Below the pieces are notes generated by a model, which was not told the DNA's origin, did not search any database, and saw only the letters and a program-made list of their open reading frames with translations. DNA of 23,652 bases, taken from assembly GCA_027001995.1 (NCBI GenBank), contig JALTLO010000041.1, positions 1 through 23,652 of the forward strand, written 5' to 3'. The position numbers were made by a program, and so were the translations under genes. This document shows positions 3,616 to 20,908 of the stretch, piece after piece. Source of the stretch: Planctomycetota bacterium. GTDB lineage: Bacteria; Planctomycetota; GCA-002687715; DRQF01. The first letter of the stretch is position 1. Each line of letters opens with the position of its first letter.

Positions 3616-6600
3616 GCTTCACCGCTCGTCGACTGGGAACCAAGCGTTTTGTCAACGCCGTCCACTCCATCTTGAGGAAGCAAGACAACCCAATTGCGAT
3701 TGTGAAAACACAAAGCGTCCTCTGATTCCTCTGACATGAAAGCAACTCTCTCTTCCGGCCAGGCCACATCGGCTTGCGCCACCACCTGTCCAGATACAAA
3801 CAGCTCGAAAGGAACTTCTGGAAGAGGATGGCCAAGAGTCAAAGCATGCTCAACCATAGGAGCAAGATGTTCACCGGCGAATTCCAAAATCTCCTGAAGT
3901 TCCTCTTCGGATGCCTCGATCGTTGGTTCTGCAGCTTGGAGACCTCGGGATGATTCCGCGTTTTCGTCCACCAAGCTCGGGTTCTCCAAAACAAGCCGCT
4001 CGGTGCTTGTGAACTCAAATTGAGGGAGAAACTGCAACACGTTCACACAGCCTAAGAAAGACCGCCAATCATGCTCGAAATCATCCTCTGATCGGGCCAC
4101 AAACGTGTCATTCAGCCGCAGACGTGCCTTCAACGCGGGAGTAGGATTCTCGAGACTGGGCGCACTCTGAAGTTTGAGCAGCAACGCGACATGCTGCCCA
4201 AGACGAAGCAGTGATGGACTTTGTGGGCGCGAGCCATGGTAATCAACATTTCCATCTAAGAGAGGCCAAGAGATAGTCCCAAGAGCATTCTCAACTTTAG
4301 CGATATCCGCATCCAAGGGAAAGCTCCTTTGTATTCCCAACAAAACAGTCGTTGCAATCTTAATCGGGCTCACTTGATTTCGAGGATCACCCTCTGAAAG
4401 AAGAGCCAGGAGCCCACTGAATGGATCAGTTTGCTCAAGCAACGCAGTCAAGCCCTTGCCCTTTCGAACAAGGAACTCTCGCACGTTCTTAGAATCCTTG
4501 TGGCCCATAAAAAGCTGCGCTGAATCTCCCTTACCTTCAAAATGGTCTAAGTCGCGCCAAGTGTAGCTCCATACGATCCAATCTTGCGAATGGATGATCG
4601 CCCGTCGTTTGAGGACGTCGTCTTCGATTCGTGATTGAATCTTCTCTTTTTCCACATGATATGTGAATCCATCACCATAGACAGCGATCCCTTGGGCATG
4701 GGGCGCATCGGGCATGTCAAGCACGAAGTCAGGGCGCGTCGGTACAGACACGCCTTCAGAGGACCCAAGTTGCAATTGAGCTCTCAAACGCCATCTCTGA
4801 TTCCCTACGGTTAACGACCACTGGGCGCCTGGCAGTTCATCCTCAATTTGCACTTTTGGCAAACCAGTCTTTGGGCTATCCATCAACTCATGCAGAAGCC
4901 GTACGAAACGAACCTCCAGCTCACTTTCCATTCGAGTTGAAAGTCGAGCTTCTGACAGCGTCTTGATGTCCTTCAATCGCCCCTTGGCCCCAAGTATCTC
5001 TTCAAGAAGTCTCTCGCAAACAGACCGCTTGATCACACTGAGATTGGCCTGTTCTTGATAAGCGTAGAGGCAATGGTAGCAGCCTTCGCGCCCCTTCGTC
5101 TGGCGGCACCGGCAGCTGCGAATAGCTTCAAGTGCCAACTCGAGCACTTCTATAAAACCATCATTGCGCCAAAGTTGGGCCAAATACCCTGTGCCACCAG
5201 GGACGGTATCAAAGATCACCAAGAATCTACGACGTGCGAATTCATGATCTTCGTAGGGTTCAGTCATAGAGCGGATGGAAAGATGAATAGGGTTGCCCTT
5301 GAATTTCTTCCTTAGTCCGAGTTGAAGCGCAGCACGAAAATTGACCTCGGTGTCATGAGTTTCTTCCAGTGCCACTGGCAAGAGCACACGAATAGCTTGG
5401 CTCTCAAGTCGACGATAGAGAAAGACCGTTTCAATACGCTCCTTCTTGCCTTTTCTTGCGGCACACCAAAGAGAATGATCGATGTCGATCTTATTCTTGG
5501 CGAAGTTCCTTTCAGGGTCGGAAACACGGCCGCAGTCCATGCAGACCTTGAAGCCAGGTGCGACATTCTCATCGCCAGCTGTCATGAAATCAGCCGAGGG
5601 CGTATCGGTTCTCAAATGCCCCAAATTGATTTCTTTCAACTCAACGCCGCGAAGAAGTTCGTACCCAAACGGCAGTTCTTCAACCAAACGTGCGCCAGAG
5701 CCATGCTGAACTGGGTCAACATCAACCAAGGCTTGGAACTCATAGAAGAGACGATCTCTGTCGTCATCATCATCAACAGAAATACTCTCTATATCTTCAG
5801 AAAAAGAACGGGCCTCAGAGAAACGAATCATCTTGCGGAGTTGCCCAGCATCGTGCCAGCCTAAACTGCCACACCGAGGACAGGAATCTTCCGTAGACAC
5901 ATCGTTGGCCGCTAAGACCGTCATATGGCAATTGTCACAAAAGCGCCAAATCTCAACTTTTGGTTTGCCCTGACTTCCCACGTCCAAGTCAGTAATCTTG
6001 ACCTGGTGTCCCTCGGCATAGAATGTGTTTCCAGGGGCGAATTCACGCAGTGCGGCACTCGCCGGGCGCTGGTATTCCAAAGTCACATACTCAAACTTCT
6101 TCTCGCCGCCAGCGTCCATGTCTTTGCGCTTCCGAATCACAGACTTCAGGACAACGCCGGGCTCGGGAAATGCGTAATTGGGCAAGACCCCAGCATCCGT
6201 CAGCACGTTGAGGGGATACTTCAGCCGAAGTTCGCCAGCCACCCGGCGCAAAGACTGAATACCGTGATTCGTCTCTTCAATGGCTGCATCCACTTCGTCG
6301 GGGGGCACATCGTCAATGAGGCCCTCCTCAAGATCCCTAAGCCTAGTCTTCAGACGTGTCGTTTGCGAACGAAGTTCCTTCAGTTCTTCACCGATAGCCG
6401 CGAAGGCTCCGGATATGGCTGCGCTCACCTCCCCCTTTATGGCAAAATCAGTGAGCATGTTTCTGTCTTCAGCATCCAAGTTGCCGCCAAAAACCTTCAA
6501 AAACTCGTCCAACAGGCCTTGGCGATGGCCTTCCTCAAACTCAAGAAACTGTCCAGGAAAAATCCTCTGTCCCCGCTCGCTGAGCACCATTTCCACCTTG

Positions 6601-9600
6601 CGCGGAATAGGTGAGGCGTGTTCGTCATTTCTCGCCCAAGCGTCCATGCAAAATGCAGCAAGTTGTCGTTTGAGCATCTCCGGAGCTTCAAGAAAACAAC
6701 CCGGAGGCTCGACGCTACCTGCCAATATTTCTTCTGGCTGCTCAAGAAAATAGAGGTCGTGTGGCCGGGTAACAGCCATTGTCATGGTTAAGGAGTTCCC
6801 CGTTGAACGGCCCCCTCGCCCAATTCTTTGCAAATAATTCGCTGGCGCCGGTGGCACTGAGCAAAGCACCGTTGTCGACAAATCACCTATGTCGATACCC
6901 ATCTCTAATGTCGGGGTGCAGACCAAAAGGTTCTCGTCATCGGGCCGCTTGCGTTTCTTGAAGCGGTCCTCCAGATTTTCTCTATTGTCACGATTTAGAA
7001 GACCTGTGTGTTCACCAACGAAAATGCGCTCAATATTCCCCGAGCGATAAACTCGCGCATAGTAAACATCGTCTTGCAATGGGATAGAGTGCAGCCTGCC
7101 ATTTCCTCTAAACACTGGGCTTGGGGCGTCTGCAAAACAATCCAACATGGATTCAGCGACCAAGTAGCGCCGATTCGTATCTGAACACTGAAGCGCTACC
7201 ACTTTCTTGGTCACTTTCAGTTTTTCTGGATTCAGGCCCCAAACGGACGCACCCTTTTTGCTTTCCACTTCCAAGAAGATCCCTGAGCGTACGCAGGCTG
7301 CCATCGTTGCTCGGTAAAGTTCGAGAATCCCGGGGCTATTGTTGCTTACGCCAAAACAGCGAGCGGCAAAATCAACATACCAAGTCAGCCCCTTACCCAT
7401 GAATGAATCAAAAACCTCATGCCCTGGTCGACTGGTTAAGAATTTTGGCTGCCGAGAGTATTTGCCAAAAGGCGAAAGGTAGGGGTTCATGCGCTTCGAA
7501 AGCAGATAGCTGGCCCCATCCCTTTCAACATAGGTTTTCAACAAGGGGTGCATGATGCCGCCCCGCTGCCGAGTTCGCATCAGAATCGCGGCTAAGAACT
7601 GCCGCACGGAGGAAGCACCTATAACTTCTTCGCCGAATACTCTCTCTTCTGACAGCTCAAGCTCAAGTTCGCCAACCGCTGCACGAAAAGCATCTTGATC
7701 GACAACCAAAGTGCTACAACTCGCTTTCTCGAGTGATCGACCCAAAAGCGCCGCATAGCCAAACTCTTGGGTCACCTCCCAAGACAAACGCTTAAGAAAT
7801 CGCGACTTTAGATAATTGAAATTCCTCTCGTCTGGTTTCTCCATATACCGATCGTAAGCTTCAATGCGCCCTAAATCACGAGGCCAAAAAGTCGCGACGA
7901 TCTCGTTTTTCTCACGCTTCTGGTCTTGCCAATACTCCATCATCTCTTCAGCAAAAGTAGAGAGCGACAGATCTTCGTCTCGACTCTCTAGAAGCCCCTG
8001 AATCGCCGATCGCATGTTAAAACGATAAGTACGGGCGCCAAAGAAGCCAGCTCGATGAGAAGCGTCTTGCACGGAATCAGTGAAAGCGAGAAGCTTCTTG
8101 TCCTTATTGTAGGGCGTCAAATACTGTTCGGAGATGGCAACTGAAAGAAGACTCGGAGCCCGCGAGCCCAAGATACGCAGAGCATCTTCGGCGCCACATT
8201 CAGGACAGCGAAAGAGAAAACGACGCCTCCGCCCTTCTCCAGAACAGGTCTGCTCGACGATAACATCCATTGCAAGCTCAGGGTCGAGCTCACCATCACT
8301 GGCATGGCCAAGAGACAAATCTGACAGATCTAATCGGTGATTTATTAATTCGCCTTCTAACTTCCCAGGCAGAATAAATGCACTCATCGGGGCCTTCTCC
8401 AGCCATGCGTGCCCAATGTCGCTCCGCTTATCAAGCACCTGCTGTTTGGTTTGATGAATCCTGGCCGCGAAGCCAGAACAACCGCAGTCGCGACAATGAC
8501 CGATTGGCAAATAGCGCGCGTCTTGAGTTGAATGAATCTCATCTTCCCATGCGAATGCGGGTGCGGTGTCAACACGACGCATCAAGGCGCGAAGCTCACG
8601 CACCCACAACTGCACTTGAACGCTCAAGAATGGCGCTTCATCACCCTGCAATGTTCTTGTCCGCGCTTTAGAAATAAGCGCCACATAGGACTCCAACAGG
8701 GCCCTACGTACTTCGGGGTCACGATCATTCCAACCGTCTTCTGCGTCTGACAGCGCCAGATCTATTTGGTCAAATGCCTTGGGCCTGCCCCCAATTATCT
8801 CCAGGAGAGATCGCAACAGACCATGACCGCTGAGGGCTTGCCCCAGCTCGAATGGGTTATCGAAGGTGCGACCAAACCAAATCCGCTCTTGGGCCTCATA
8901 GTATTCGGACACGGACGATGCCATGTCAGGATCAAGCTCACTCAATCCGACGTTGGGTGTGACTGTATCTTCAAACACATCTCCCAATGCCTCATTGGCC
9001 GTTTGCCGATCCTCACGAACCAAAGAAGAACGATCGAACGTGACGCCAAAAATCTCTGAAGCAAACCGCGTCAAGGCTTTGTCAGAGTCAACATCTTCGC
9101 CGCCGATCGTTGCAGAAGTGCCCACACAACAAATACTGTGTTTGTCATGGGTGGGTACCCCAAGCCTCGCCTTCAATCGGCGAATCAAACAAGCGATGTC
9201 ACTGCCTTGGGCGCCGTCATAACTGTGCAATTCATCAAGCACGAGATAGCGCAAAGTTGCTGGGCGATTGAGCCGCCAAAGGTCTGCATCCTCGGGTCGA
9301 AGGAGCAGGAAATCGAGCATCTTGTAATTCGTAAGCAAGATATCCGGCGGCGATTTGCGCAACACATCTCTTTGATCCACCAGATGTTCACCGTCAGCTC
9401 GCCCATGGGTTCCTTTGCCTCCCACATAGAGCCCAGCCGTCACCCCAGAGTCTTTGAGGTGCTCATCATCGTGCAGCATCTTCGCCAAGCGCCTGGCTTG
9501 ATCACTGGCCAAAGCATTCATCGGATAGAGAATGATTGCCTTGATGCCATCAATACCCGCCTTGCGTTCTCGCACACAATGATCGAGCAAAGGAAAGAGA

Positions 9601-9938
9601 AAACACTCCGTCTTTCCTGAGCCGGTACCTGTCGTCACCAAGGTGTGCTGAGGTTGCCGACCGTCTTTTGATCTAAGATTGCGAAAGGCCTGTAGTTGAT
9701 GAGCATAGGGAGGAAAACTTGGCATAAGATCAAGGGGTTGCTCCTCTGCAACAACATCGATCTCTCCGGTGCGAAAGGGCAAACGAACATCCAGCCACGG
9801 ACCGCGGAATATGCCCCGCTCGCTCTCAAGAAACTCAAAGAACGCCGCAACAAATGCCTCATCGGCGAAACCAAAGGTTGCCCTCAGATAATCAAGGATA
9901 CTCCGTCGAACTTGTTCAACAACTACGCTGGGAATCAT
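3612..9938 (-). CDS. Large SF2 (DEAD/DEAH) helicase with DUF1998 Zn-binding domain and C-terminal restriction-endonuclease-like domain (DrmA+DrmB/DruE-like architecture)
   Basis: Motifs TGTGSGKT, DELH, SAT, EHTGLL, TPTLEMGIDIG, QRIGRGGR. DUF1998 signature FDTVPGGTGY...CRC...GCYHCL. Several CxxC pairs. ESELE...RPDF...AVYGDGFTYH resembles a Vsr/DUF559-type PD-(D/E)xK fold. GGAG/GAGG RBS upstream. Confidence 0.9.
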   Translation of the reverse strand: MIPSVVVEQVRRSILDYLRATFGFADEAFVAAFFEFLESERGIFRGPWLDVRLPFRTGEIDVVAEEQPLDLMPSFPPYAHQLQAFRNLRSKDGRQPQHTLVTTGTGSGKTECFLFPLLDHCVRERKAGIDGIKAIILYPMNALASDQARRLAKMLHDDEHLKDSGVTAGLYVGGKGTHGRADGEHLVDQRDVLRKSPPDILLTNYKMLDFLLLRPEDADLWRLNRPATLRYLVLDELHSYDGAQGSDIACLIRRLKARLGVPTHDKHSICCVGTSATIGGEDVDSDKALTRFASEIFGVTFDRSSLVREDRQTANEALGDVFEDTVTPNVGLSELDPDMASSVSEYYEAQERIWFGRTFDNPFELGQALSGHGLLRSLLEIIGGRPKAFDQIDLALSDAEDGWNDRDPEVRRALLESYVALISKARTRTLQGDEAPFLSVQVQLWVRELRALMRRVDTAPAFAWEDEIHSTQDARYLPIGHCRDCGCSGFAARIHQTKQQVLDKRSDIGHAWLEKAPMSAFILPGKLEGELINHRLDLSDLSLGHASDGELDPELAMDVIVEQTCSGEGRRRRFLFRCPECGAEDALRILGSRAPSLLSVAISEQYLTPYNKDKKLLAFTDSVQDASHRAGFFGARTYRFNMRSAIQGLLESRDEDLSLSTFAEEMMEYWQDQKREKNEIVATFWPRDLGRIEAYDRYMEKPDERNFNYLKSRFLKRLSWEVTQEFGYAALLGRSLEKASCSTLVVDQDAFRAAVGELELELSEERVFGEEVIGASSVRQFLAAILMRTRQRGGIMHPLLKTYVERDGASYLLSKRMNPYLSPFGKYSRQPKFLTSRPGHEVFDSFMGKGLTWYVDFAARCFGVSNNSPGILELYRATMAACVRSGIFLEVESKKGASVWGLNPEKLKVTKKVVALQCSDTNRRYLVAESMLDCFADAPSPVFRGNGRLHSIPLQDDVYYARVYRSGNIERIFVGEHTGLLNRDNRENLEDRFKKRKRPDDENLLVCTPTLEMGIDIGDLSTTVLCSVPPAPANYLQRIGRGGRSTGNSLTMTMAVTRPHDLYFLEQPEEILAGSVEPPGCFLEAPEMLKRQLAAFCMDAWARNDEHASPIPRKVEMVLSERGQRIFPGQFLEFEEGHRQGLLDEFLKVFGGNLDAEDRNMLTDFAIKGEVSAAISGAFAAIGEELKELRSQTTRLKTRLRDLEEGLIDDVPPDEVDAAIEETNHGIQSLRRVAGELRLKYPLNVLTDAGVLPNYAFPEPGVVLKSVIRKRKDMDAGGEKKFEYVTLEYQRPASAALREFAPGNTFYAEGHQVKITDLDVGSQGKPKVEIWRFCDNCHMTVLAANDVSTEDSCPRCGSLGWHDAGQLRKMIRFSEARSFSEDIESISVDDDDDRDRLFYEFQALVDVDPVQHGSGARLVEELPFGYELLRGVELKEINLGHLRTDTPSADFMTAGDENVAPGFKVCMDCGRVSDPERNFAKNKIDIDHSLWCAARKGKKERIETVFLYRRLESQAIRVLLPVALEETHDTEVNFRAALQLGLRKKFKGNPIHLSIRSMTEPYEDHEFARRRFLVIFDTVPGGTGYLAQLWRNDGFIEVLELALEAIRSCRCRQTKGREGCYHCLYAYQEQANLSVIKRSVCERLLEEILGAKGRLKDIKTLSEARLSTRMESELEVRFVRLLHELMDSPKTGLPKVQIEDELPGAQWSLTVGNQRWRLRAQLQLGSSEGVSVPTRPDFVLDMPDAPHAQGIAVYGDGFTYHVEKEKIQSRIEDDVLKRRAIIHSQDWIVWSYTWRDLDHFEGKGDSAQLFMGHKDSKNVREFLVRKGKGLTALLEQTDPFSGLLALLSEGDPRNQVSPIKIATTVLLGIQRSFPLDADIAKVENALGTISWPLLDGNVDYHGSRPQSPSLLRLGQHVALLLKLQSAPSLENPTPALKARLRLNDTFVARSEDDFEHDWRSFLGCVNVLQFLPQFEFTSTERLVLENPSLVDENAESSRGLQAAEPTIEASEEELQEILEFAGEHLAPMVEHALTLGHPLPEVPFELFVSGQVVAQADVAWPEERVAFMSEESEDALCFHNRNWVVLLPQDGVDGVDKTLGSQSTSGEA

Positions 9939-9980
9939 CCCTCACTCCATGCCAATCAGTCTCATGCCGAGCTTGAGCCC

Positions 9981-10008
9981 AATTTAGCAATCCTCCCCCT
10001 TCTGTCCA
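9981..10008 (-). promoter_or_regulatory. Possible sigma70-type promoter for the helicase-UvrD pair
   Basis: Minus strand reads TGGACA-16 nt-TAAATT, with TG-N immediately before the -10, about 40 nt upstream of the ATG at 9938. Confidence 0.3.
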
Positions 10009-10093
10009 GTGAGCTCAAATGGAGGTCATTTGGTGACGAAATCCACAGCTCCTGCTACTATCAGGCCCAACGCAAGAGATATAGAGGAATCGA

Positions 10094-10990
10094 ATGGCTG
10101 TCACGCGACCCGAAGACAAGGATTTGCTCACAAAGCTCTTTGACGAAGTGGATGAATTAATGGATCCAAAGATCCGATCGCCTTGGAAAAGGGTCCGAAA
10201 ACGACAAATCAAGCGGACTGACACCGATGGTTGGCATGGCGAACTGGCAAGAAACGGTGGCATCACCTTCGAAGTCTGGATTGACAGGTGGGCCAGCGGC
10301 AAGGATGGTCTGCGGCAGTGGTGGTACGGTTTCGCCGGAGAAACCCCAATGGCCCGGCGAGCTATCGCCGAGGCGGCCCATTGTATCGACCCCGAGATCA
10401 GGGTGCTTAATGACGAAGCACAAACACGCTCATTGTCGATCCGAGGTCACACTTCGCTAGCCGAAAAAATAGACTTAGAAGATTTTGATGAGATCATTTG
10501 GGAGAATTACGAATGGGAGCGAACTGCGTTCCTGGGAGTCTTTTCACGAAATCGTTCCTTGAACAACCCGCCTTATCTCCTTGCAGACGAGATCGTCGAG
10601 TTCTTCAGTACTCACTCTGCGGAATTCGTCGACTCAGAACCACTAATTTACCCAAAAGAAGGTCAAGATAAGGTCGTCACTCATTTACGGAAGGAACGCT
10701 CCAATTCTTTTGTCCGCAACATGAAAGCTGCCCAAGGACCAGCCTGCGCTGTCTGCAGAACTGACCCACGAGAGATTTATGGCAAGGAGGTCGGCGAGAC
10801 CATCGTTGATGCTCATCACCTCATCCCACTTAAAGACTGCAAAAAGCCAAGACGTCCTCAGCGCCAGGACTTTGCCCTCGTCTGCCCCAATTGTCACAGA
10901 GCGCTTCATCGTCTTAAGAGCGGTACATCCGCAGTCAGTGTACTACGCCGCCTTGTGAAGAGAAACAGGGCGAGAAATGAGGCTAAGTAG
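10094..10990 (+). CDS. HNH endonuclease, McrA-like C-terminal domain (putative type IV restriction enzyme)
   Basis: EG..K..TH...ERS, CAVC, DAHHLIPL and LVCPNCHRALH motifs. The N-terminal ~180 aa are unrecognised. AGAGGA RBS upstream. Confidence 0.82.
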   Translation: MAVTRPEDKDLLTKLFDEVDELMDPKIRSPWKRVRKRQIKRTDTDGWHGELARNGGITFEVWIDRWASGKDGLRQWWYGFAGETPMARRAIAEAAHCIDPEIRVLNDEAQTRSLSIRGHTSLAEKIDLEDFDEIIWENYEWERTAFLGVFSRNRSLNNPPYLLADEIVEFFSTHSAEFVDSEPLIYPKEGQDKVVTHLRKERSNSFVRNMKAAQGPACAVCRTDPREIYGKEVGETIVDAHHLIPLKDCKKPRRPQRQDFALVCPNCHRALHRLKSGTSAVSVLRRLVKRNRARNEAK

Positions 10991-11756
10991 AGAAGGCGCC
11001 CACGATCCATCCAGTGCTCAACGCCACAGTCATGCTGGATAAGGTGCCAACCAAGACATACTCAGCGAAGTCTGAATCGGCTTCCATTGCTTTTGACCGA
11101 ACGATACCCTTAGCGGCAATCAGAAGGCCAAGAGCGCCATATTGCCCAGCCAGGACAAAGACATAAACGAGAATACGTTCGAGCACACCAATCTTCCAAC
11201 CCGCTCTTCTCTTAGCAGCCCCGTCACTCCCAAGTTCATCGGCCTCTTCTTCCGCTGGATCATTTTTGGTCTCCGGCTTCGCTCCAAGAACCACACTCAC
11301 CACAGTTGAACCACCACCCAAGATGAAACAAAATCCTGCCAAGGTGAAAAGCGAACCAGCCAAAGCGCCGGAATTCGTCGGGAGGACTAAGATCGGTGCC
11401 CTTAACGACAATTGATCAAAAGTCACAAGCAAAGGAATCACACAGAAAACAAACAAATGTCCACCAAGGCGAACGCCCCATCTCAGGTCTTCAAGAGGAA
11501 TGAGATGTCCAAGAATTTTGCAATTCGGCAGTTTCATCAACAACGACAAGACCGAGAATATCACGACCCAATGCAATTCATGGACTATCAAGCTCATGAC
11601 GATGCCAAACGCTAAGGAAGATGCGAATGCTCTCTTTGTCGTCTTGCTACTTGGCATTGGGTTGGCGAAATGGACCACCGACCATAGCAGCAATGGTTGG
11701 GCCCAAAGCAAGCGTGTTGATGGGGACAAGATGGATGTCAAATCGACTGGGGGCAT
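10983..11756 (-). CDS. DUF3307-family (SatE-like) multi-pass membrane protein
   Basis: Several hydrophobic segments and the C-terminal signature AGWKIGVLERIL...GLLIAAKGIVR...AEYVLVGTLSS. Directly downstream of satD. Start is ATG 11756 or TTG 11759. Confidence 0.8.
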   Translation of the reverse strand: MPPVDLTSILSPSTRLLWAQPLLLWSVVHFANPMPSSKTTKRAFASSLAFGIVMSLIVHELHWVVIFSVLSLLMKLPNCKILGHLIPLEDLRWGVRLGGHLFVFCVIPLLVTFDQLSLRAPILVLPTNSGALAGSLFTLAGFCFILGGGSTVVSVVLGAKPETKNDPAEEEADELGSDGAAKRRAGWKIGVLERILVYVFVLAGQYGALGLLIAAKGIVRSKAMEADSDFAEYVLVGTLSSMTVALSTGWIVGAFST

Positions 11757-11768
11757 CAATGAACTCAG

Positions 11769-12422
11769 CTATTTTGGGAGACTCTCACTTGTGTGATCGA
11801 TGAGGCTCTTCAAACCCCGCTCTACCAAGACATGCAATTCCCAATCGAGGTTCTTTGCATGCCTGCTAATATTCTGGACGCTTTGTTTCCACTCAATGGA
11901 CACATCTGTCATCGTTTTTTCTTTACGGAGCTCGCTTGCCACTGCTGATTGCTTCTTAGTCCAGCCTCGCCTTTGAGTGCTGAGGGTCTGCCCGAGTGCC
12001 GTCATCGGAACATCCATATCAGCGCCAAATCCTCGAAACCCAACACCTCCCTTTCGTCGTCTCAACTCGCCTGTCATTAAGTCACGAGCGAAATGAAAGG
12101 CTGGCCCATCGATAGCCCCCACCGGCCGGTCAAGGGACGTATGAATTTCACCCTTGCCCACGGCAATTCTCAAATCAAACTGCATCTCCAAAGTCCACAA
12201 GATGTCAACGATGGGTGCCGAATGCTGAAGGAGCCCCTCACACTCGTCGCCCAATGTCAAAGTGAAAGGCGCAGCAATATCCGCTTCATATTTTTCGTTC
12301 AATGAATTTAGCGCCTCTTGGAGGTCATCTTGAATCTGCCATCGATCATCTTTGTATTGCCGCTTTGATTGGACCAAATCAGCCACGAAGGCATAGTAGT
12401 CGCGTGGATTCTTGTTTGTCAT
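11769..12422 (-). CDS. satD: SatD-family protein (nucleotide-cyclase-like N-terminal fold plus C-terminal HTH)
   Basis: Motifs AFVADLVQSK, FTLTLGDECEGLL, LRIAVGKGEI, DGPAFHFAR, then HTH-like WTKKQ...TMTDVS...SVQNISRH. ATG at 12422 with GAGGT RBS is preferred over TTG 12449. Confidence 0.85.
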   Translation of the reverse strand: MTNKNPRDYYAFVADLVQSKRQYKDDRWQIQDDLQEALNSLNEKYEADIAAPFTLTLGDECEGLLQHSAPIVDILWTLEMQFDLRIAVGKGEIHTSLDRPVGAIDGPAFHFARDLMTGELRRRKGGVGFRGFGADMDVPMTALGQTLSTQRRGWTKKQSAVASELRKEKTMTDVSIEWKQSVQNISRHAKNLDWELHVLVERGLKSLIDHTSESLPK

Positions 12423-12435
12423 AAGTGACCTCAAC

Positions 12436-12566
12436 TCAACCGATTCCAATTGATAAATAGATATAAACCAATATCAGTTGAAATATAATATTTAAACTTA
12501 TTTCAATTGAAATAAGTTTATCAACTGAATTCAGTTGATATCAGAAAATCAATTAAAATCGATTGA
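12436..12566. repeat. Array of five 18-bp palindromic operator-like sites, T(C/A)AAY-N8-RTTGA, 28-29 bp period
   Basis: Sites: TCAACCGATTCCAATTGA (12436), TAAACCAATATCAGTTGA (12464), TAAACTTATTTCAATTGA (12493), TCAACTGAATTCAGTTGA (12521), TCAATTAAAATCGATTGA (12549). Includes perfect palindromes of 28 bp (12493-12520) and 22 bp (12519-12540). Very AT-rich. Confidence 0.88.
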
Positions 12567-12999
12567 GAACATAGAAACCAACTAGCCCATCTCCATTGTT
12601 CTTCCTCAAATCTGGGACACAAGCATGGCAAAGCCATCTCTTGCTTGAAACTTCTCCAAGATGTCAACGCGGGTTTTCTGAGAAACAGAAGCAAATATTA
12701 AGAAAGCTTGGGAATCTTCCGCTGAACGCTCCAAGAACATCAAAGAAGAAAGAGAAGACAAGTATCCTTCTCCCTTCCCCGCGATATTTAGCCACCAACT
12801 TCATGAATTCAAGACGCCAGAATGCCACTCCCGTATATCCAATCTATCAACAGAATTCCAAGCAAGGCGCTGCCATATTGGCCATCGCAGAGAGCCCGAG
12901 CATGTGTGCAAATCTGCGGTGTTGAAACCCAGACGAGACAAGCGGACATTCCCCAAGGTTAGGCAAGCCGAATCCAAAGGCCACATAGGAAAGTAGAAA

Positions 13000-14949
13000 T
13001 CAAACAGCCATGATCCCTTGAGGGGTCACTTCGATCAGGCCGTATTGCAAAAGTTCCGTCTCGACAGTTTCACGGAATACTTGACGATCAAGTCCAACCG
13101 AACAAGCCAATCGGGCTTGGCCACATGGCCGGTTGCGTTGCCTAAGAAAGTTTAGAGTGCGGATGTGGTTGGGCCCGAAACCTCGATGGTCCATGCGGCG
13201 TTGCTTCAGCGCCTGCTCAACCAAGGCTCTGTCGATTATTGAGTATTCGTTTGCCAAGAGATGATCTTCCACGGACGCCAAGAGGGAAAGAGCCTTCCTT
13301 GGCGTTCCCATGGAAGCCTGAGCAATCATCAAGGAAGCTTCCGAATCAATGGGAGCACAAGATGCTTGTGACACAATATCCGCCAACTCCTCGTCGCTGT
13401 AACTCAAGAACTCTTCTTGCACAGTAAAGCGATCTCTCAGAGGTTTTGGCATAAGATTCGGATTCGTGGTGGCGCCAATCACGCAAACCTTCTTCTTATC
13501 CATGACGTCATAAAGTAACTCAGCCACACTTCTGGGTAAGCCATGGATCTCATCAATGAACAAGACACAGCCATCAACAACAGAAAGATCTTCCAAACAA
13601 GAAACAGCAACCCCAGTTCGTTCAATGAAGGGAGCTTCGGTCTCCACCGCAACCGCTCTTGCCATCGTGGTCTTCCCCAGCCCTGGAGGGCCAGTGAATA
13701 GAATGTGCCGAAGGGGCCGCTCAGCAACTCTGGCCGCCTGGCAAGCCACTCTCAGTCCTTCAATAACATGTTGCTGTCCTATGAGTTGCGAAAGATTCTT
13801 GCCCACGGCTTTGCCATGTTCAGGTGGCACACGTGTGCCACCATTTATTGCTTCAACAGAGATCCTAAGCCCTGAATGCCGAATCGGTTTAGCCAATTCG
13901 CGGCCATCTCGATCTGTGATCTTGATCTGATGAGGAGCCTGGCCCTTCACGACTAAGAATCCATCATGGATCATTCCGTGGCAGCGATTGCAAGCTGTTA
14001 TCAAATTGGCAGCATCTGTTTTGCCTCCGTTCGCCCGAAAGACAATGTGATGGGCATGAAGATTCGATGCGCTGCCACAATGCACACATCGCCCGCCATC
14101 TCTGGCCAAAACACGTTTGCGAAGAGCTGGGGAAGTGGGCGCTGCTTTTCCACCACCGACAACGTGAGCATCACAGTGAATGGTACTCGCTTCCGCATCG
14201 CTCAATTCGATGGGCCCATCTTCCGTATTCACATGAGACTTGGCACAGCTTGGGCACTGCCCCACGGATACACGATAAAGCGAGTCTCTTGATTCTTGAA
14301 TCCCTGGGGCACCAGCCATTTCACGAAGCCGGTATTCCGCCATGGCCAAGAGGACTTCCGCATCATCCAGCTCAGCCCCGGCCTCGGCACAGATCTTTCG
14401 TCTTGCCTGTTGCAGGATTTCATGAGCTGCCGGCGCTAGTTTTGCTCCGAACTGGAACCGTACGGAGGGAGTTCCCTTACCATCTTTGCGAGGCGCCCTG
14501 CCAAATTCAGCGCCTCGCATCTGCGCTTCCAATTGATGGCAGGAAAGTTCCAAGGCCCGCTCCAACCACGCCGCTTCGTTCTCAGGAGTGGCCACAGAAA
14601 CCAACAAGCGCAATTTTGACCACGCAAGATGTCCATCGCAAAATGCTTGGTCAATCAGTAGGAGTTCTCGCAAGGCTTTGCCCACAGCGACCAAGTCACG
14701 AGCATGCCGCCTGTTCATTGACAACCTTTGGCAAGCGAAGTGAACAGCACTTGAGAAACCAAGTTCTTGGTGCAACCCCCGTCTTTGCATGTCATCCAAA
14801 TAAAATGACAAACTCCGCCGGGCAATGTCGTTCGAGCGATGGCTGCGCACAAGCGCCTGCTCAAGCTCTCTTGCTTCAAGCCCTGGACGTAAACGGATAC
14901 AACAATTCTTTGATCTAACTGCCTGTTTTGTACTCATGAAAGTAACCAT
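13000..14949 (-). CDS. DUF222-like / HNH endonuclease / RuvB-like AAA+ fusion protein
   Basis: N-terminus ELGFSS..HFA..RL...AL.EL..ID.AF..G.L.WSK.RLL (DUF222-like). HNH: VLARDGGRCVHCG...HAHHI...GG.T...NLITACNRCHGMIH. RuvB-like C-terminus: IGQ, HILFTGPPGLGKTT, LFIDEIH, IGATT, PLRDRF, GTPR, VETELLQYGLIEVTPQG. Start is 14949 or 14937. Confidence 0.88.
   Translation of the reverse strand: MVTFMSTKQAVRSKNCCIRLRPGLEARELEQALVRSHRSNDIARRSLSFYLDDMQRRGLHQELGFSSAVHFACQRLSMNRRHARDLVAVGKALRELLLIDQAFCDGHLAWSKLRLLVSVATPENEAAWLERALELSCHQLEAQMRGAEFGRAPRKDGKGTPSVRFQFGAKLAPAAHEILQQARRKICAEAGAELDDAEVLLAMAEYRLREMAGAPGIQESRDSLYRVSVGQCPSCAKSHVNTEDGPIELSDAEASTIHCDAHVVGGGKAAPTSPALRKRVLARDGGRCVHCGSASNLHAHHIVFRANGGKTDAANLITACNRCHGMIHDGFLVVKGQAPHQIKITDRDGRELAKPIRHSGLRISVEAINGGTRVPPEHGKAVGKNLSQLIGQQHVIEGLRVACQAARVAERPLRHILFTGPPGLGKTTMARAVAVETEAPFIERTGVAVSCLEDLSVVDGCVLFIDEIHGLPRSVAELLYDVMDKKKVCVIGATTNPNLMPKPLRDRFTVQEEFLSYSDEELADIVSQASCAPIDSEASLMIAQASMGTPRKALSLLASVEDHLLANEYSIIDRALVEQALKQRRMDHRGFGPNHIRTLNFLRQRNRPCGQARLACSVGLDRQVFRETVETELLQYGLIEVTPQGIMAV
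13823..13842. repeat. Perfect 20-bp palindrome inside the CDS at the HNH-RuvB junction
   Basis: GGTGGCACACGTGTGCCACC equals its own reverse complement and encodes the linker GGTRVPP. Confidence 0.9.
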
Positions 14950-15105
14950 GTTTAGGTCGAAACCGGTTCTTCATTGTACAAACCAAGGGGGTCATTTCTT
15001 CCTCAGCGGAGGCTATCCATTGGCAAGCTTGACCGAGAAATGTGCGTCGGGCGAAGCCTTGTAGTGAAGTTTGAGATCGGACATGAATTCCGAGAGTTGA
15101 GAGAA

Positions 15106-15402
15106 CGATAGGTGGATACTTTGCTGCGCCGAACAAAGCGAGGCAATTTCTTGGATATCGCAGCGAGCATAGACGCGAAGGACTGCGGCTTGCACAACAA
15201 TATCGATGTCGAAGCTTTCATTGAGATGATCCCCTCGCACATGCCGGCGAGGAACACCGCCAAACACGGCACAACTTTCAGAAGCGGCCGCAACATTGCT
15301 GATCAAGTCCACAAGTCTTGGATTGGAAACTCTCTTCTCAAGAACAAAACGACGCAACCGCCGTTCAATCCGAGATCGCAATTCCAATTCAGGACTTGGC
15401 AT
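15106..15402 (-). pseudogene. Degraded nucleotidyltransferase-like gene (Pol-beta superfamily head)
   Basis: ATG 15402 with GAAGGG upstream. AVFGGVPRR...FDIDIVV resembles GG..RD...DxD but the RD Asp is lost. An apparent frameshift near 15195 leads into CKPQSFASMLAAISKKLPRFVRRSKVSTYR. Too short for a full enzyme; 3' boundary approximate. Confidence 0.5.
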
Positions 15403-15439
15403 AAAGACCCTTCAGATCCTTGTGAAACTCGACCAAGAG

Positions 15440-15710
15440 AGTATCTGTACCTGAATGGCATTATGTTCTTGGGGGATGACGCTATCTCAATATAGTTGTC
15501 AGATATTCGTGAGAATGCGTACTTGTGCGGTGGCAGCTTCCTTTTGCGGTCAATCTCGATTTTTGAGGACTTTTCCGAAATCGCCGACCAAGTCATGTCC
15601 ATCGTCTCTTGAATGATTTTGAAACCCCGGGCTTCAAGGCGCAAGACCGCTGTGGAGTTATAAGCCGTATCGGAAGCGAAACGTCTCAAACTGTCCGCCA
15701 GGAATTGCCA
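15440..15710 (-). pseudogene. C-terminal fragment of a dGTP triphosphohydrolase-like gene
   Basis: LADSLRRFASDTAYNSTAVLRLEARGFKIIQETMDMTW...KYAFSRISDNY...PFRYR resembles the dGTPase C-terminal helical region. The HD domain and terminal D.I.GMTD motif are absent. Boundaries approximate. Confidence 0.5.
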
Positions 15711-16108
15711 AAAAAGCGCCCGGTGCAATGCGCTATGTCGATACTTTGTGTTCCTGTAGATGGGCCCCCGTTGGGGAGCTATCAAGACATAGGCGGAAAC
15801 CGCTGTTTGGTTCCCATTCCTTCCACCCCAATTTGAGGAGCAAGCTTGGCAAACCCCAGCCCTCGGCTTGGACTACTCACACTTTGGCGACCGCTTCTTG
15901 CAACGATTGGGACTAGGAGGTGCCTCTTAGGTGGACATAGAAAAGCGCTGGAATCAAGATGAGGTCGTGCGCCAGGTAATCGCCCGAGGCGATCAACAAC
16001 TTGCTATGAGCCTTTTGCATGAGCCCTTCCCAAATCTCGGCGGTCAACTTAGACTTGCAATTGTCTCCATAGGAGATTTTCGTATGACTGATGGCATAGA
16101 GAAAAAAG

Positions 16109-18736
16109 ATGGATACGACTCACCCCAGAAGGCAAATCAGCCTGATCCGGAAAAGATGGCGCTCGCTACTGCTGAGGGCATTCTTCCTGGCACTCTTTAT
16201 TACGTCCGCCTATGTCGCCTCGCCTACAATCCAACGTGGATTGACAGCAACAACTGACACACCTTGCGAGATCTGGATGCTCATCATTGTGTCGACCTTC
16301 CTCGCCTCACTCCTGCTCCCACCCGACCGGGAATACTGGACCAATCGATATCCATTCTGCTGGCCGCCATCCTGGACGGTGCCGATTCTTGCCATTCCCA
16401 TGTCAATTCTCTTCGGAATGATCCTGACCGGTACAGCGACAAGTTGGTTTCCAAAAAATAACATCCTGTTTCGTAGCAGCTCTGCTCTCATATTTCTTTT
16501 CTTTGGCTCAGCCATCTATTGGGCGAACTACGGTGGGGCCGAACTGCGTTTGGGAATTTCGAGATGGGTCACCCCCGGAATCATGACATCAGCGATCAAT
16601 AAATCTGATGTCACCCAGTTGGATGGCCAAGATTTCCTAAATTGGATAGAAAATGAAGATCCAATCAGCGACGAACGCTTCGATTTCTTCCAAAGCGCTC
16701 AAGTCGCGGATGAGGTCTTCGACTCCCTCAAATTAAGCGAAATCGACAATGGCGGGCTACGGTCAATTGTTCTATTGGGTGAAGTAGGTAGCGGCAAGAG
16801 CAGTGTAGGACGCCTCGTCGCAACGAAACTTCGTTCCGCATATGCATCCAAAGTGAACTTCAGAAGCGTCGGATTATGGTCATACTCTGATGGCCCGTCC
16901 GCCGCAGCAGGGATTCTCACCGAGGTGACGAGCTGCATCAACAGAGAAATTGACATGCTTTCGCTTCAAGGACTTTCGAGAGAGTATGCGAAGGCCATTG
17001 ATCTCGCAGGAACAACAGGCACGCTCCTCAACATTGCCCTGCAGAGGCAACGAACTCCCCAGGAAATCGTCCAGGTTATTGACGACATCCTTGCAGCAAT
17101 TGGCAAGCATCTTGTTGTTTGGGTCGATGATATGGAACGTTTTCAAAGCATAGATACTGCCACCAACGAGATTGGCCCAGTGCTGGCGCTCTTAGAATCA
17201 TTGCACAGTGCAAAGAATCTCACGGTCATAATCGCAACCGTAGCTGAGTGCAAGGCGCTCGACTACACCAGAATGGCATCACATCTGATCCTGATGCCAG
17301 AGAATTCGCCAACTAAGTTCTGGAAGATCATCGAGAAATTCATCACTGAGACATTTGAACAAAGCCCGCTGCTCCGCTGTGCCGATCCTAATTCCAACAT
17401 CCCCCGTGAATTCTGGATGTTGGGGGACATTCAGACTTTCATGCCGGGTGAGCAGGTAGACAATTCCCATCGCAGAACCGGGATGGCACGCAACGCGGCA
17501 TTTCAGGATATCATCCGGACGCCTCGCCTCATCAAGGCAGCACTCAGGTGGACCCTCAAACACTGGGGGCGGTTGGCAGGCGAATTCGATTTCAATGACT
17601 TATTGATGTTGGGTGCGATCCGCGCACGTATCCCAAGAGCAATTCAGTGGTGCGGCGAAAATCGAAGTGCCCTGCGCGACCAGGCACAGAAGATAAAGGT
17701 CAGCGACGGGACTCTCCGTTTGCCGCAGGACGAAAGCTCATTTGAGGCGAAGTTACCAGACCTACAAACAAATTCGCTGAGAATTTTACTCCAAGGGCTA
17801 TTTGGTCGGACTTACACAAGCACTCAAGGGGTAGCGAACCAATCGGTCGATTATTGGCCGCGGCTTCAGGCTGGCCGCGGCCGGGAGCACGCCCACTCAG
17901 ACCAAGAAATACTCCAAGCAATCAACGAGGCCAGCGACGGCGATTCAACGGCCTTGCTCAGAATGATGCATATCAAGTCATTGCGTCCGTTAGTCGTAAA
18001 CCTCGGAATGACTGCGGACACAGGGACTCTCCTTGCAATCCTCAAGAAAACGACCTCGAATTCTATTGGCGTCATGAATACGACGAAACCACTGCAAGAA
18101 AAATGGGAACCAGTACTCAGCATTGTGGCCGAACTTGTCGTTCAACAAATTGACGATATTAGAAAAACCTCAATCATCACAGATGCCCTAGTCGAAGTCG
18201 GGAAACAGTGCGCTGAGAATTCGATCGCCATGTCAGCTGCTTTCATTACCATCTTGACTTTTCACAGGGAGGAGCACCTAAGAAGAAAGAATTGGGACCC
18301 AACGGACACGTTTGGCGACTCATTCCTCGAACACTTGGTCAACGGCAATAGCGACGATGTCACCAGATCTCTTCAATCAGAATCCCCCTATTCGCTTAGA
18401 GAGGTCATGCATGGCATAGGTCTTTTGAGAATGGCCGAAAGCGGCAACCCTCCGCAGATTGGCGACAATACTAGTTGGAAAAATGTATCAGATCGACTCT
18501 TACAACTTGCAGCAGAGGATCAGTCATTTAGCGTAGTCAAACAGCTATTGCCGTTAACGACGGAACTCTCACACCCGCGATTGGGTGGGCATCCAATTCT
18601 CCGAAACAATCTCAGCGAATACTTCGACGAGCCTACCTTGCAGACCATCATCCGCAGAACGATTGCTCCACAAGAACTCCGAGACGATACCCTCGCTATG
18701 TGGAATCCTCTTCAAGAGTGGGCATCAGAGAAATGA
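16109..18736 (+). CDS. KAP-family P-loop NTPase with about four N-terminal transmembrane segments
   Basis: DPI....D.F motif, Walker A SIVLLGEVGSGKSS, GLWSY, Walker B VVWVDDMER, and TPRLIK. Four hydrophobic stretches in the first ~140 aa. Confidence 0.82.
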   Translation: MDTTHPRRQISLIRKRWRSLLLRAFFLALFITSAYVASPTIQRGLTATTDTPCEIWMLIIVSTFLASLLLPPDREYWTNRYPFCWPPSWTVPILAIPMSILFGMILTGTATSWFPKNNILFRSSSALIFLFFGSAIYWANYGGAELRLGISRWVTPGIMTSAINKSDVTQLDGQDFLNWIENEDPISDERFDFFQSAQVADEVFDSLKLSEIDNGGLRSIVLLGEVGSGKSSVGRLVATKLRSAYASKVNFRSVGLWSYSDGPSAAAGILTEVTSCINREIDMLSLQGLSREYAKAIDLAGTTGTLLNIALQRQRTPQEIVQVIDDILAAIGKHLVVWVDDMERFQSIDTATNEIGPVLALLESLHSAKNLTVIIATVAECKALDYTRMASHLILMPENSPTKFWKIIEKFITETFEQSPLLRCADPNSNIPREFWMLGDIQTFMPGEQVDNSHRRTGMARNAAFQDIIRTPRLIKAALRWTLKHWGRLAGEFDFNDLLMLGAIRARIPRAIQWCGENRSALRDQAQKIKVSDGTLRLPQDESSFEAKLPDLQTNSLRILLQGLFGRTYTSTQGVANQSVDYWPRLQAGRGREHAHSDQEILQAINEASDGDSTALLRMMHIKSLRPLVVNLGMTADTGTLLAILKKTTSNSIGVMNTTKPLQEKWEPVLSIVAELVVQQIDDIRKTSIITDALVEVGKQCAENSIAMSAAFITILTFHREEHLRRKNWDPTDTFGDSFLEHLVNGNSDDVTRSLQSESPYSLREVMHGIGLLRMAESGNPPQIGDNTSWKNVSDRLLQLAAEDQSFSVVKQLLPLTTELSHPRLGGHPILRNNLSEYFDEPTLQTIIRRTIAPQELRDDTLAMWNPLQEWASEK

Positions 18737-18821
18737 ACAGGCTATCGTGAGATTGGTATCAATTCAGCCCGGCGGCAAATTCGCAGATTTCCATGAGTCA
18801 GATTGACCGCAAGGACTTGCT

Positions 18822-20615
18822 TTACTCACCACCGATCCACCTGAAAAGACGGCGAAATCCTTCGGCATCATGACAGTTTTCGTCAAATCCTTCTGCTCTA
18901 GCCTTCGTTAGGAATTGCGGGACTATGTTGGGTCCGTGACCGGAAACGCCCAAGTGACGCTCGATGTCGCCTTTCGGCCAGACCCAAATCCCGCACTCTA
19001 AGACTTGAGAACACAGAGTTCGTATAGCCATTGCGCCATCCGCATCCTCCCCAAGAAGTGCAAACGCGTCTCGAGGATTGATATTCGATTCCTCGCTTTT
19101 CATCGGTAGCCCGTTGCCCTCAGCGAGTGCAAATCCGTGCTCTTCACTCAGTTCTACGAGTCGCGCCAAACACGATTGAAACTCAGTTGAATTTTCGGCG
19201 ACAAGATTCGCGCGAAGGGCTTGGCGGAATAGAAAATCTAGATCCACTATCGCTCGCGCCTTTATTCCCATGGCCGTGAGAATCTCGAGAGACTTCTTGA
19301 TGCTTCCAACTCCGCCAACAGAAATCAGAGCGATCTTATCCGCATCCATCTTACGCCCAGTGACTATGTGATACAGATCTGGAAGAAGTCTCAACTCCGT
19401 CTTGCCTTCAGTGATAACTACATACTCAGAAAATAAGATTAGGCTCGAACGGGTTAAATCAAACATCAAGTCAACCTGGTGATCGGCCTCACTAGAAAGC
19501 CTCTCGATTTCTTCATCGAGCCTTGGCTTCGCAATTGTACCCAGTTCAAGGTCTTTGTGAATAACGAGCGTCCTCTTCATATCGTCAGACGTCAACATCT
19601 GTGGTGCGTGTGTCGAAAACACTACTTGATATTCACCAAGTGAAAGTGCCCGGAGAGCCTCCCGAACTTGGACAACAGCTTGAGGATGAAGATACAGTTC
19701 TGGCTCATCGATCAGAAGTAACTTTCGTGAGCAATCGGTTGCCGCCTGATTCTCACGACCCCGGGAAATCTGCCGAATGAGCGACATTTGAATCGAGCGC
19801 TGTGCACCATGCCCAAGGCTACCAACATCGCCCCAATCATTACGATGTTCTTCTCTCACTTTGAGCGTGGCACCTTTCACAAAATCTTTGAATTCCGGAA
19901 CAGGAATATGCGCGGCGATTTCGAGACCCGGGTAGAAGTCACTGAGTCCACTTGTTGCGGCCTCATCGAACTCTACGAGTTCCGTTGCTCGAGACTGACC
20001 TCCAACTTCAAAAATATCACGGGCACCATCCAATCCTTGGCTAATCGCCGCACTGTGATTTGCCTCCAACTCTCCAACGATCTGCGATAGAAGTTTCCCA
20101 ATAGTCGTCGAAGTCTTGAACTTCGTGACGTCCTCATTCGCGTCTTGCATGGCTTCGATGCGAACGATTTCCGGAAACAAGGCCGACAAGGCTTGAGGGA
20201 TACCAGCTGGGTTGATCCTCCAAGCATCATCATCATCGTCACTCTCAATTTGTGGATCTCGAACAAGGAGTCTCACCTGCGCCTTCGAAATATTTGGCCG
20301 ATCTTGAATTCGTCGTAGTTGAATTGTGCCATTAGCAAGCAGTGGCTCAACTCGGGCACGATGGGCGACCAAAAGGCCTAAGAGTATTGCCTCGTCGATA
20401 CCTGAAATCACAAGTTCAACGCTAACTGCGGTCGAGGTGTCACAAAAGTCGGAGTCCCCGAGAGACGTGTGCTTAACACCCCAGCATAAGGCGGCGATGA
20501 TGTTTGATTTGCCGACATTGTTCTGTCCGACAAGAGGCGTCATATCGTCCAAAACAAATTCCGCACATGAAATTGACCTGAAATTCTTGACACGTATTTG
20601 CTCAATACGATGCAT
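18822..20615 (-). CDS. old: OLD-family ATP-dependent nuclease (ABC ATPase + TOPRIM), phage P2 Old-like
   Basis: KNFRS, LVGQNNVGKSNI, GHGAQRSIQM, IDEPELYLHP, STH, TOPRIM EGKTE and DLD, plus NPAGI...LFPE, TTIGKLL and W..GDIE as recalled from P2 Old. ATG 20615 has a GGGAGAGG RBS. Confidence 0.88.
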   Translation of the reverse strand: MHRIEQIRVKNFRSISCAEFVLDDMTPLVGQNNVGKSNIIAALCWGVKHTSLGDSDFCDTSTAVSVELVISGIDEAILLGLLVAHRARVEPLLANGTIQLRRIQDRPNISKAQVRLLVRDPQIESDDDDDAWRINPAGIPQALSALFPEIVRIEAMQDANEDVTKFKTSTTIGKLLSQIVGELEANHSAAISQGLDGARDIFEVGGQSRATELVEFDEAATSGLSDFYPGLEIAAHIPVPEFKDFVKGATLKVREEHRNDWGDVGSLGHGAQRSIQMSLIRQISRGRENQAATDCSRKLLLIDEPELYLHPQAVVQVREALRALSLGEYQVVFSTHAPQMLTSDDMKRTLVIHKDLELGTIAKPRLDEEIERLSSEADHQVDLMFDLTRSSLILFSEYVVITEGKTELRLLPDLYHIVTGRKMDADKIALISVGGVGSIKKSLEILTAMGIKARAIVDLDFLFRQALRANLVAENSTEFQSCLARLVELSEEHGFALAEGNGLPMKSEESNINPRDAFALLGEDADGAMAIRTLCSQVLECGIWVWPKGDIERHLGVSGHGPNIVPQFLTKARAEGFDENCHDAEGFRRLFRWIGGE

Positions 20616-20653
20616 CGCCCTCTCCCATTCTTGCTGTTGATCCTGATGCGTGA

Positions 20654-20682
20654 AGGATCTCAAACGGCACTCGCTTTGTCAA
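20654..20682 (-). promoter_or_regulatory. Possible promoter of old
   Basis: Minus strand reads TTGACA-17 nt-GATCCT (perfect -35, weak -10 preceded by TG-N), about 40 nt upstream of the start. Confidence 0.3.
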
Positions 20683-20908
20683 TAGTACTGACTTGCACTC
20701 AGCGATTCCGCATCTGGACTCGTTCGTCAGCCATTTTGGGATATGTGGATGATCTTTTGAGTCGGAATGGTGACCAAGGATTGCCGCAAGCACTTGTTTC
20801 ACGGCTTAGATCGACACATTGGTAGGCCAGAATGAGCTCGGTCGGCAGTGGTGCTATTTCCGAGCACGAAGCGCTCGGATTCTTCTTGGTTCGATCAATG
20901 CGGCGGTG

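Follow-up and report, generated by a model that had tools for sequence, protein, structure and literature searches.

Phased palindromic sites upstream of satD in a planctomycete contig belong to an array type found across the SatD family and are probable SatD operators

The satD gene in the window analysed here, which is one entire contig (C41; 23,652 bases) of a planctomycete genome of 5.22 Mb (51.7% GC, 204 contigs), is preceded by five 18-bp palindromes in regular phase and by a sixth out of phase, and comparison with satD loci from other phyla identifies this arrangement as a divergent, expanded member of a family-wide, unpublished operator architecture. In our reading the phased palindromes are operators of SatD itself, dimers of which would bind them through a C-terminal helix-turn-helix (HTH) and repress the operon formed by satD and a SatE-like membrane-protein gene; we put the probability of this at about 0.78. 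The class, for which we use the term SatD-type phased operator array, was defined from the loci compared here and not from any paper, as at least three palindromes of 18-20 bp with a common half-site and a 28/29-bp period directly upstream of satD, and the window's array has each of these properties.

Numbered outward from satD, the phased sites are the proximal O1 (12436..12453; TCAACCGATTCCAATTGA), whose midpoint is 22.5 nt before the first base of the satD start codon, O2 (12464..12481; TAAACCAATATCAGTTGA), the central site O3 (12493..12510; TAAACTTATTTCAATTGA), O4, which is a perfect 18-bp palindrome (12521..12538; TCAACTGAATTCAGTTGA), and the distal O5 (12549..12566; TCAATTAAAATCGATTGA). 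Their starts follow one another at 28, 29, 28 and 28 nt, and the linkers between them, of 10, 11, 10 and 10 nt, are AT-rich. The off-phase sixth site (12503..12520) overlaps O3 by 8 nt, and together the two form a perfect 28-bp palindrome (12493-12520) whose arms, 12493-12509 and 12504-12520, are 100% complementary. The initial annotation of this DNA had described five 18-bp sites starting at 12436, 12464, 12493, 12521 and 12549, gaps of 28/29/28/28, AT-rich linkers of 10-11 bp and an overlapping site that completes a perfect 28-bp palindrome; the sites were recovered by our pattern search, and the spacings and the palindrome came out the same on re-measuring.

The pattern searched was TMAAYNNNNNNNNRTTGA, which can be written TMAAY-N8-RTTGA and covers 18 bp. 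In the window it gave 9 strand-matches at 6 distinct positions, all of them inside the 131 bp from 12436 to 12566, while 100 dinucleotide-preserving shuffles of the window gave a mean of 0.49 strand-matches and at most 4, so that none of the 100 reached 9. When the AT-rich stretch 12423-12600 (27.5% GC) was shuffled by itself 20,000 times with its dinucleotides kept, no shuffle had two or more sites, against the six observed; the maximum was a single site, which occurred in 362 of the 20,000. Over the whole 5.22-Mb genome the pattern has 81 distinct positions, approximately what we ourselves estimate from base composition, and the satD array is the one place where more than two exact sites fall within 200 bp. 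The single other close pair of exact sites is 114 bp apart on contig C138. The array is well beyond chance and is the sole such cluster in the genome.

The gene behind the array, satD (11769..12422, minus strand), encodes a protein of 217 aa that scores 65.2 bits against the Pfam SatD family PF16264 (cut-off 29, E 8.8e-18) in a match that spans only positions 1-110 of the 211 in the profile; PF16264 was the sole family returned by the Pfam scan, which reported no Xre/HTH_3 domain. The genome contains one satD copy, and its product is divergent, with 33-38% identity to its nearest relatives. The N-terminal motifs of the family, xxGDxxxS, TLGDEF and DGPAFHxAR, are all present in it. Residues T56, L57, G58, D59, E60, D105-H110, A112 and R113 are invariant in an alignment of 29 sequences that includes the window's, and D15 is near-invariant in the same alignment. 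In the AlphaFold2 model (pLDDT 93.8, pTM 0.89) the protein ends in three helices, 156-166, 171-178 and 182-191, in a region that aligns with the HTH of the family. The C-terminus is accordingly a predicted HTH, with its recognition helix at about 182-191, and model and family alignment thus agree with the C-terminal HTH that had been ascribed to SatD from its sequence.

A Foldseek search of the PDB matched approximately residues 8-130 of the model to 1ybu_A, the cyclase domain of Rv1900c (E 4.7e-4, probability 1.00; TM 0.42/0.53 and rmsd 3.0 Å over 120 columns). Further matches were to guanylate cyclases, GGDEF domains, Cas10/Cmr2 and the minimal CRISPR polymerase (mCpol), and as modelled the N-terminal domain appears to have the palm-type fold of the class III nucleotidyl cyclase/GGDEF/Cas10 superfamily. 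The TLGDEF motif and the upstream Asp (residues 15, 59 and 60) resemble the metal-binding acidic residues of cyclase and GGDEF domains. D15, D59 and E60 presumably occupy the spots expected for the two metal-binding acidic residues. Judged by these motifs SatD may bind or even make a nucleotide, and the modelled fold likewise makes a nucleotide-binding or catalytic role plausible.

The membrane-protein gene follows on the same strand (10983..11759, 258 codons), beginning 9-12 nt past the satD stop depending on whether the TTG at 11759 or the ATG at 11756 is taken as its start. A hydropathy scan of the 258-aa ORF gave five hydrophobic segments. Pfam returned no match for this ORF, which falls below the DUF3307 model, and the Protein Atlas offered unnamed clusters only, together with a DUF3307 lead at 0.77. 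By blastp the ORF matches the ORF downstream of satD in the 74 loci tested (E 4e-20 to 2e-4), most strongly over its C-terminal 90 residues, and 17 of 38 of these satD-downstream ORFs carry DUF3307. In a 101-genome sample of the L078 family, represented by a Streptococcus record, SatD and DUF3307 occurred in the same 18 genomes and were adjacent. The satD gene and the membrane-protein gene thus form a fixed pair. Given that SatD is the sole candidate for DNA binding in this conserved two-gene unit, it is very probably the protein that reads the sites.

With the window protein as query, no SatD match was found in any of the 8 genomes searched from the same genus and family, and the genomes of 52 other relatives gave two weak matches. 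Because of this, and because the nearest SatD proteins are so distant in sequence, we compared the geometry of the upstream regions rather than their sequence. One genome per species was scanned, and the comparison set comprises 80 SatD loci out of at least 479 confirmed by tblastn, from Acidobacteriota, Bacillota, Pseudomonadota, Planctomycetota, Gemmatimonadota and other phyla. Four SatD frames of odd length, L050 (524 codons), L063 (458), L074 (725) and L062 (92), were omitted from the protein alignment; they could be fusions, read-through produced by the ORF rule, or broken genes.

For each locus we took the 300 nt upstream of the start codon and recorded, by autocorrelation, the lag between 8 and 60 that had the best 70-nt match. 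Among 78 loci the best lag was 29 in 35 and 28 in 7, that is, 42 of 78 at one or the other, and 58 in a further 3. Lags 28 and 29 together accounted for just 1-4 of 68-80 in five control regions taken from the same loci and for 5 of 79 shuffled upstream regions. As a check on its reading, the initial annotation had asked whether satD homologues are preceded by arrays with a comparable period, and such arrays are found.

A chain score, which rewards three palindromes at one period with common half-sites, exceeded the control maximum (37, from 73 control regions) in 52 of the 80 upstream regions. The remaining 28 did not rise above that maximum, so either the array is not universal or the start-codon calls or the scoring overlook some examples. 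The 40 loci that scored at least 40 have a period of 29 in 33 cases, 28 in 6 and 30 in 1, with two doubtful members, L024 (the one with period 30) and L040 (which holds Ns). Their sites are 18-20 bp long, and 29 of the 40 arrays have exactly three of them; a clear phased fourth site is present at L016 and L054. With five phased sites plus one, the window's array is the largest in the compared set. As a hold-out we used loci of the L078 family that had been selected by the presence of SatD alone, and all 17 have three palindromes with a 28-bp period; being close kin, these 17 count as one lineage. More generally, the SatD loci are related to one another, and the counts given here and the permutation tests given below therefore overstate independence.

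If SatD reads these sites, their sequence should be expected to change with its recognition helix. Within one locus the six half-sites are all of one sequence, and this sequence varies between loci, falling into the classes GTCACCCA-N4, CAACC-N6, CAAT, (T)ATGCAT, ATTCAT and others, with GTC..TATAAT..GAC in the L078 family. These classes follow the residues of the predicted recognition helix: QVVS[RK]Q goes with the half-site GTCACCC, QAVSKQ with CAACC, and QAVS[AL]Y with CAAT. Among Bacillota-type loci, Arg at the position equivalent to window residue 187 accompanies TGCA or TGCG in 10 of 10, and Lys at that position accompanies TTCA or GAATA in 5 of 9. The operator type of the window, TCAAC..GTTGA, recurs at L007-L009, L027 and L052, the last of which also has the 28-bp period, and alongside this operator type the window (S-R-H) and L027 (S-K-H) have the helix motif S-[KR]-H in common.

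Over 36 loci, operator distance correlated with helix distance (Mantel r = 0.445), and the correlation persisted at a partial r of 0.205 when the N-terminal domain was controlled for; none of 2000 permutations reached 0.445 or 0.205, respectively. The correlation is inflated by kinship, and we count it as support for recognition of the sites by SatD and not as proof. Co-variation of the half-sites with HTH residues had been named in advance as a further check, and both the matching classes and the Mantel statistics point the way it predicted. The proposal of the initial annotation that SatD dimers bind these sites and autorepress the operon is thereby supported, on comparative evidence.

How the array is placed relative to the start of satD bears on what its occupancy would do. 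The start codon of satD, an ATG, occupies 12422-12420 of the minus strand, and 13 nt (12423-12435) separate it from O1; a GAGG at 12432-12429, 6 nt before the ATG, is the ribosome-binding site. That the proximal site lies 13 bp from the ATG and beside the ribosome-binding site had been noted earlier and is borne out by these positions. Together with this short gap, the array takes up all 144 bp ahead of the ATG. An extra GTTGA half-site, read from the sequence on the minus strand (12435-12431; element 12429..12435), lies directly against O1 and extends into the GAGG. O1 thus has its right arm in direct repeat (GTTGA GTTGA, 12431-12440), with the second copy the one that overlaps the GAGG. A SatD subunit at this second copy would cover the translation start region.

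The initial annotation had also described the sites as covering the satD promoter, and in that form the statement was not confirmed: a simple sigma-70 promoter scan of 12300-13100 detected no minus-strand site within the array that passed its rule, its single match being inside satD. Two weak sigma-70-like candidates can be picked out on the minus strand, one at 12524-12495 (TTGATA at 12524-12519, a spacer of 18 nt, and TAAGTT at 12500-12495) and one at 12513-12485 (ATTTCA at 12513-12508, 17 nt, and TATTAT at 12490-12485). Either of them would put O3 across the core promoter.

In the relatives the proximal site overlaps promoter-like hexamers at 21 of the 40 best-scoring loci (the spacer or -10 in 12, the -35 in 9), and in all 17 hold-out loci every palindrome holds a -10-like hexamer, mostly TATAAT; these promoter calls are consensus matches only. 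It is for this reason, and because the sites of the window reach to within 13 nt of the ATG, abutting the ribosome-binding site, that we favour repression. The same observations weigh against the proposal that SatD binds the array as an activator or a dual-mode regulator, its upstream sites recruiting polymerase and the proximal one repressing at high SatD, a mode of control for which the lambda OR region is the model. On the other side, at 11 of the 40 loci (L032, L042, L053, L016, L064, L071, L040, L041, L048, L062 and L012) the best -35-like hexamer begins 13-19 nt past the centre of the third site, so that the array lies wholly upstream of the core promoter, with sites at about -50, -79 and -108. 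A site one 29-bp step further on would then coincide with the -35/-10 spacer, an arrangement that would suit graded control. The position one step further on in these 11 loci may hold a weak fourth site (clear in L016), or the layout may be an activating one. Taking both sides together, we regard activation or dual-mode control as unlikely.

Were the array a repressor-binding structure of the kind we favour, one SatD dimer would occupy each palindrome, dimerisation being suggested by the palindromic form of the sites, and the near-invariant 28/29-bp step would reflect contacts between neighbouring dimers and thus cooperative binding. A step of 29 bp is approximately 2.76 helical turns (about 2.7 per step), so that each site is rotated by roughly a quarter turn from the one before and successive sites look out from different faces of the DNA; SatD dimers placed on them would therefore spiral round or wrap the DNA. 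Occupancy of the array would block RNA polymerase, and the cyclase-like N-terminal domain could couple DNA binding to a nucleotide or other signal.

The surroundings of the pair invite other explanations. A proC-like gene (619-1467) forms an ordinary flank, and beyond it are genes for a UvrD/GajB-like helicase (1498-3615), a DruE-like helicase of 2108 aa (3612-9938; PADLOC DruE3, E 1.4e-108) and an HNH protein (10094-10990). On the other side of the pair are an HNH-RuvB fusion (13000-14949), which is upstream of satD on the same minus strand and ends at 13000, a KAP-family NTPase (16109-18736), an OLD-family ATPase-TOPRIM protein (18822-20663) and a DDE transposase (20909-22006). From their predicted products, the genes at 1498-10990 and 13000-22006 look like a defence or mobile island. 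Neither SatD nor the membrane protein was matched by PADLOC or NCBIfam, and the pair is thus not listed in that library as a known defence system.

Between the satD start and the HNH-RuvB fusion is a gap of 577 nt with no convincing gene. It contains a 109-codon ORF (12596-12925, plus strand), which has no Pfam match and is probably no gene, and a terminator-like hairpin on the minus strand (12775-12749). Contigs of related strains, from four DNA runs, have substitutions in the array region and differing joins upstream of the array, and the spacer 12539-13000 is therefore variable. In one contig, from run X3, position 12539 is joined to 13000 via 133 other letters, and in one from run X2 the stretch 12586-12766 is skipped; a loose end in run X2 bears an additional TCAAC-N8-GTTGA site. 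The copy number of sites in the array may differ between strains.

In such a setting the palindromes might instead be bound by another protein, such as a global regulator of the host, or serve a mobile element, as centromere or iteron repeats of plasmid or phage type within the island. In favour of this are the genes around the pair, with their helicases and HNH nucleases, the OLD-family nuclease and the DDE transposase. Partition sites, moreover, are typically tandem arrays of palindromes. Yet the array accompanies satD across phyla and contexts, with a sequence that varies in step with the SatD helix; the genome has no second cluster, and among the scanned ORFs of the contig Pfam named no replication or partition gene. 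In the genomes of two relatives, too, the exact sites are confined to the gene of the presumed regulator: in G062 all 3 of 3 are at satD, 29 bp apart, and in G063 the single exact site is located at satD. A global regulator with the same motif genome-wide, which the initial annotation had named as the finding that would count against its reading, is therefore not what these genomes show. Given the linkage to satD and the absence of other sites we rejected both forms of this explanation, which we consider highly improbable.

That the palindromes function at the RNA level instead, forming hairpins in the 5'-UTR by which the satD transcript is attenuated or stabilised, we find barely credible and likewise rejected, since the strong folding of the stretch (-55.7 kcal/mol, z = -9.3, with 0 of 200 shuffles as good) is what like palindromes in any array would give, a hairpin requires no more than complementarity between its arms and yet the half-sites at each locus are identical, the best promoter-like site in those 11 of 40 relatives is downstream of all three sites and would leave them untranscribed, and Rfam gave nothing at gathering score in the whole window.

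For SatD as an autorepressor a more far-reaching proposal can be made, which we regard as possible but doubtful. SatD-SatE might be an undescribed module of toxin-antitoxin or abortive-infection character, in which a cyclase-fold repressor that senses or makes a nucleotide keeps a clamp on the promoter that drives a harmful membrane protein. The clamp would be the cooperative, helically phased operator array, and phage infection or envelope stress would free SatD at once, whereupon SatE would be made.

A report on S. pyogenes transposon screens describes satD as essential in three types, finds it in just 178 of 249 S. pyogenes genomes, and calls SatD unstudied outside S. mutans (PMC11323703). 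A gene that is accessory and yet essential behaves as one would expect if it repressed, or served as antidote to, a neighbour that does harm. It would fit the antitoxin-type control suggested in the initial annotation, as would the strict co-occurrence of SatD and DUF3307 in 18 of 18 genomes. If the repressor were lost, its membrane partner would be set free, which would explain why satD is essential in that species though many strains lack it. If it held, the module would explain this pattern and the fact that the pair never splits, and also the siting of the window's pair, with its expanded five-site clamp, among Druantia-, Gabija- and OLD-like genes.

SatD and DUF3307 are a widespread gene pair without a known mechanism. 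The array gives SatD a role that can be tested, as a dedicated autoregulator whose DNA site is predicted for each lineage, and the helix residues that track half-site bases amount to a recognition code that can be put to the test. The 28/29-bp step does not correspond to an integral number of helical turns, and the protein-DNA assembly that it predicts is an unusual one. For the window itself the result is mostly confirmatory and of modest interest, adding a divergent five-site member in a defence-island setting; the greater interest is for the SatD family. Our literature searches turned up no published SatD operator or binding site, a possible remark on repeats in the original sat-operon paper aside.

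Among described systems the closest analogue is HipB on its operators. The operators of E. coli hipBA, of which there are four, are likewise palindromes of the form 5-N8-5, with TATCC-N8-GGATA there and TCAAY-N8-RTTGA in the window. As at satD, they precede an operon whose first gene encodes an HTH repressor and whose second encodes a potentially harmful partner. HipB binds the hip operators cooperatively and autoregulates (PMC3376134). In contrast to HipB, SatD has no Xre-type HTH, Pfam giving the SatD family only, and in this it departs from type II toxin-antitoxin systems with an Xre/HipB-type HTH antitoxin. SatD also has a cyclase-like domain, some 130 residues long, its partner is a membrane protein and not a kinase, and the spacing of its arrays is held at 28/29 bp across phyla.

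The lambdoid OR1-OR3 region, bound by CI, resembles the SatD arrays in having three tandem palindromic operators. The lambda operators overlap the promoter, adjacent CI dimers bind them cooperatively, and the repressor gene is autoregulated; they are 17-bp sites, spaced about 23-24 bp apart, at divergent promoters. The SatD arrays, by contrast, have a 28/29-bp step and are directed at a single operon, and SatD and CI come from unrelated families.

In architecture SatD also recalls the C-terminal fragment of Rv2242 (PDB 9f80) and BAD_0249 (PDB 3onq), in which a GGDEF/cyclase-like domain is followed by a C-terminal HTH. Foldseek aligned these with the SatD model over 231-239 columns (E 6e-4 and 2.7e-3, respectively) at an rmsd of 14-16 Å and 10% identity, which suggests that SatD and these regulators have the same layout of a palm-like domain and then an HTH. 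We know of no phased 29-bp operator array for regulators of the Rv2242/BAD_0249 type.

A further system to compare is the sat locus of S. mutans, with SatD and SatE (PF16264 and PF11750): the window's SatD is above the Pfam cut-off, its neighbour is homologous to SatE-type partners, and the L078-family loci carry the same kind of array. The sat pair is placed next to ffh (PMC12077213). The window differs in that its pair is in a defence-island-like contig and not beside ffh, that its SatD is no more than 33-38% identical to the nearest relative and its membrane protein scores too low for the DUF3307 model, and that its array has five phased sites instead of three.
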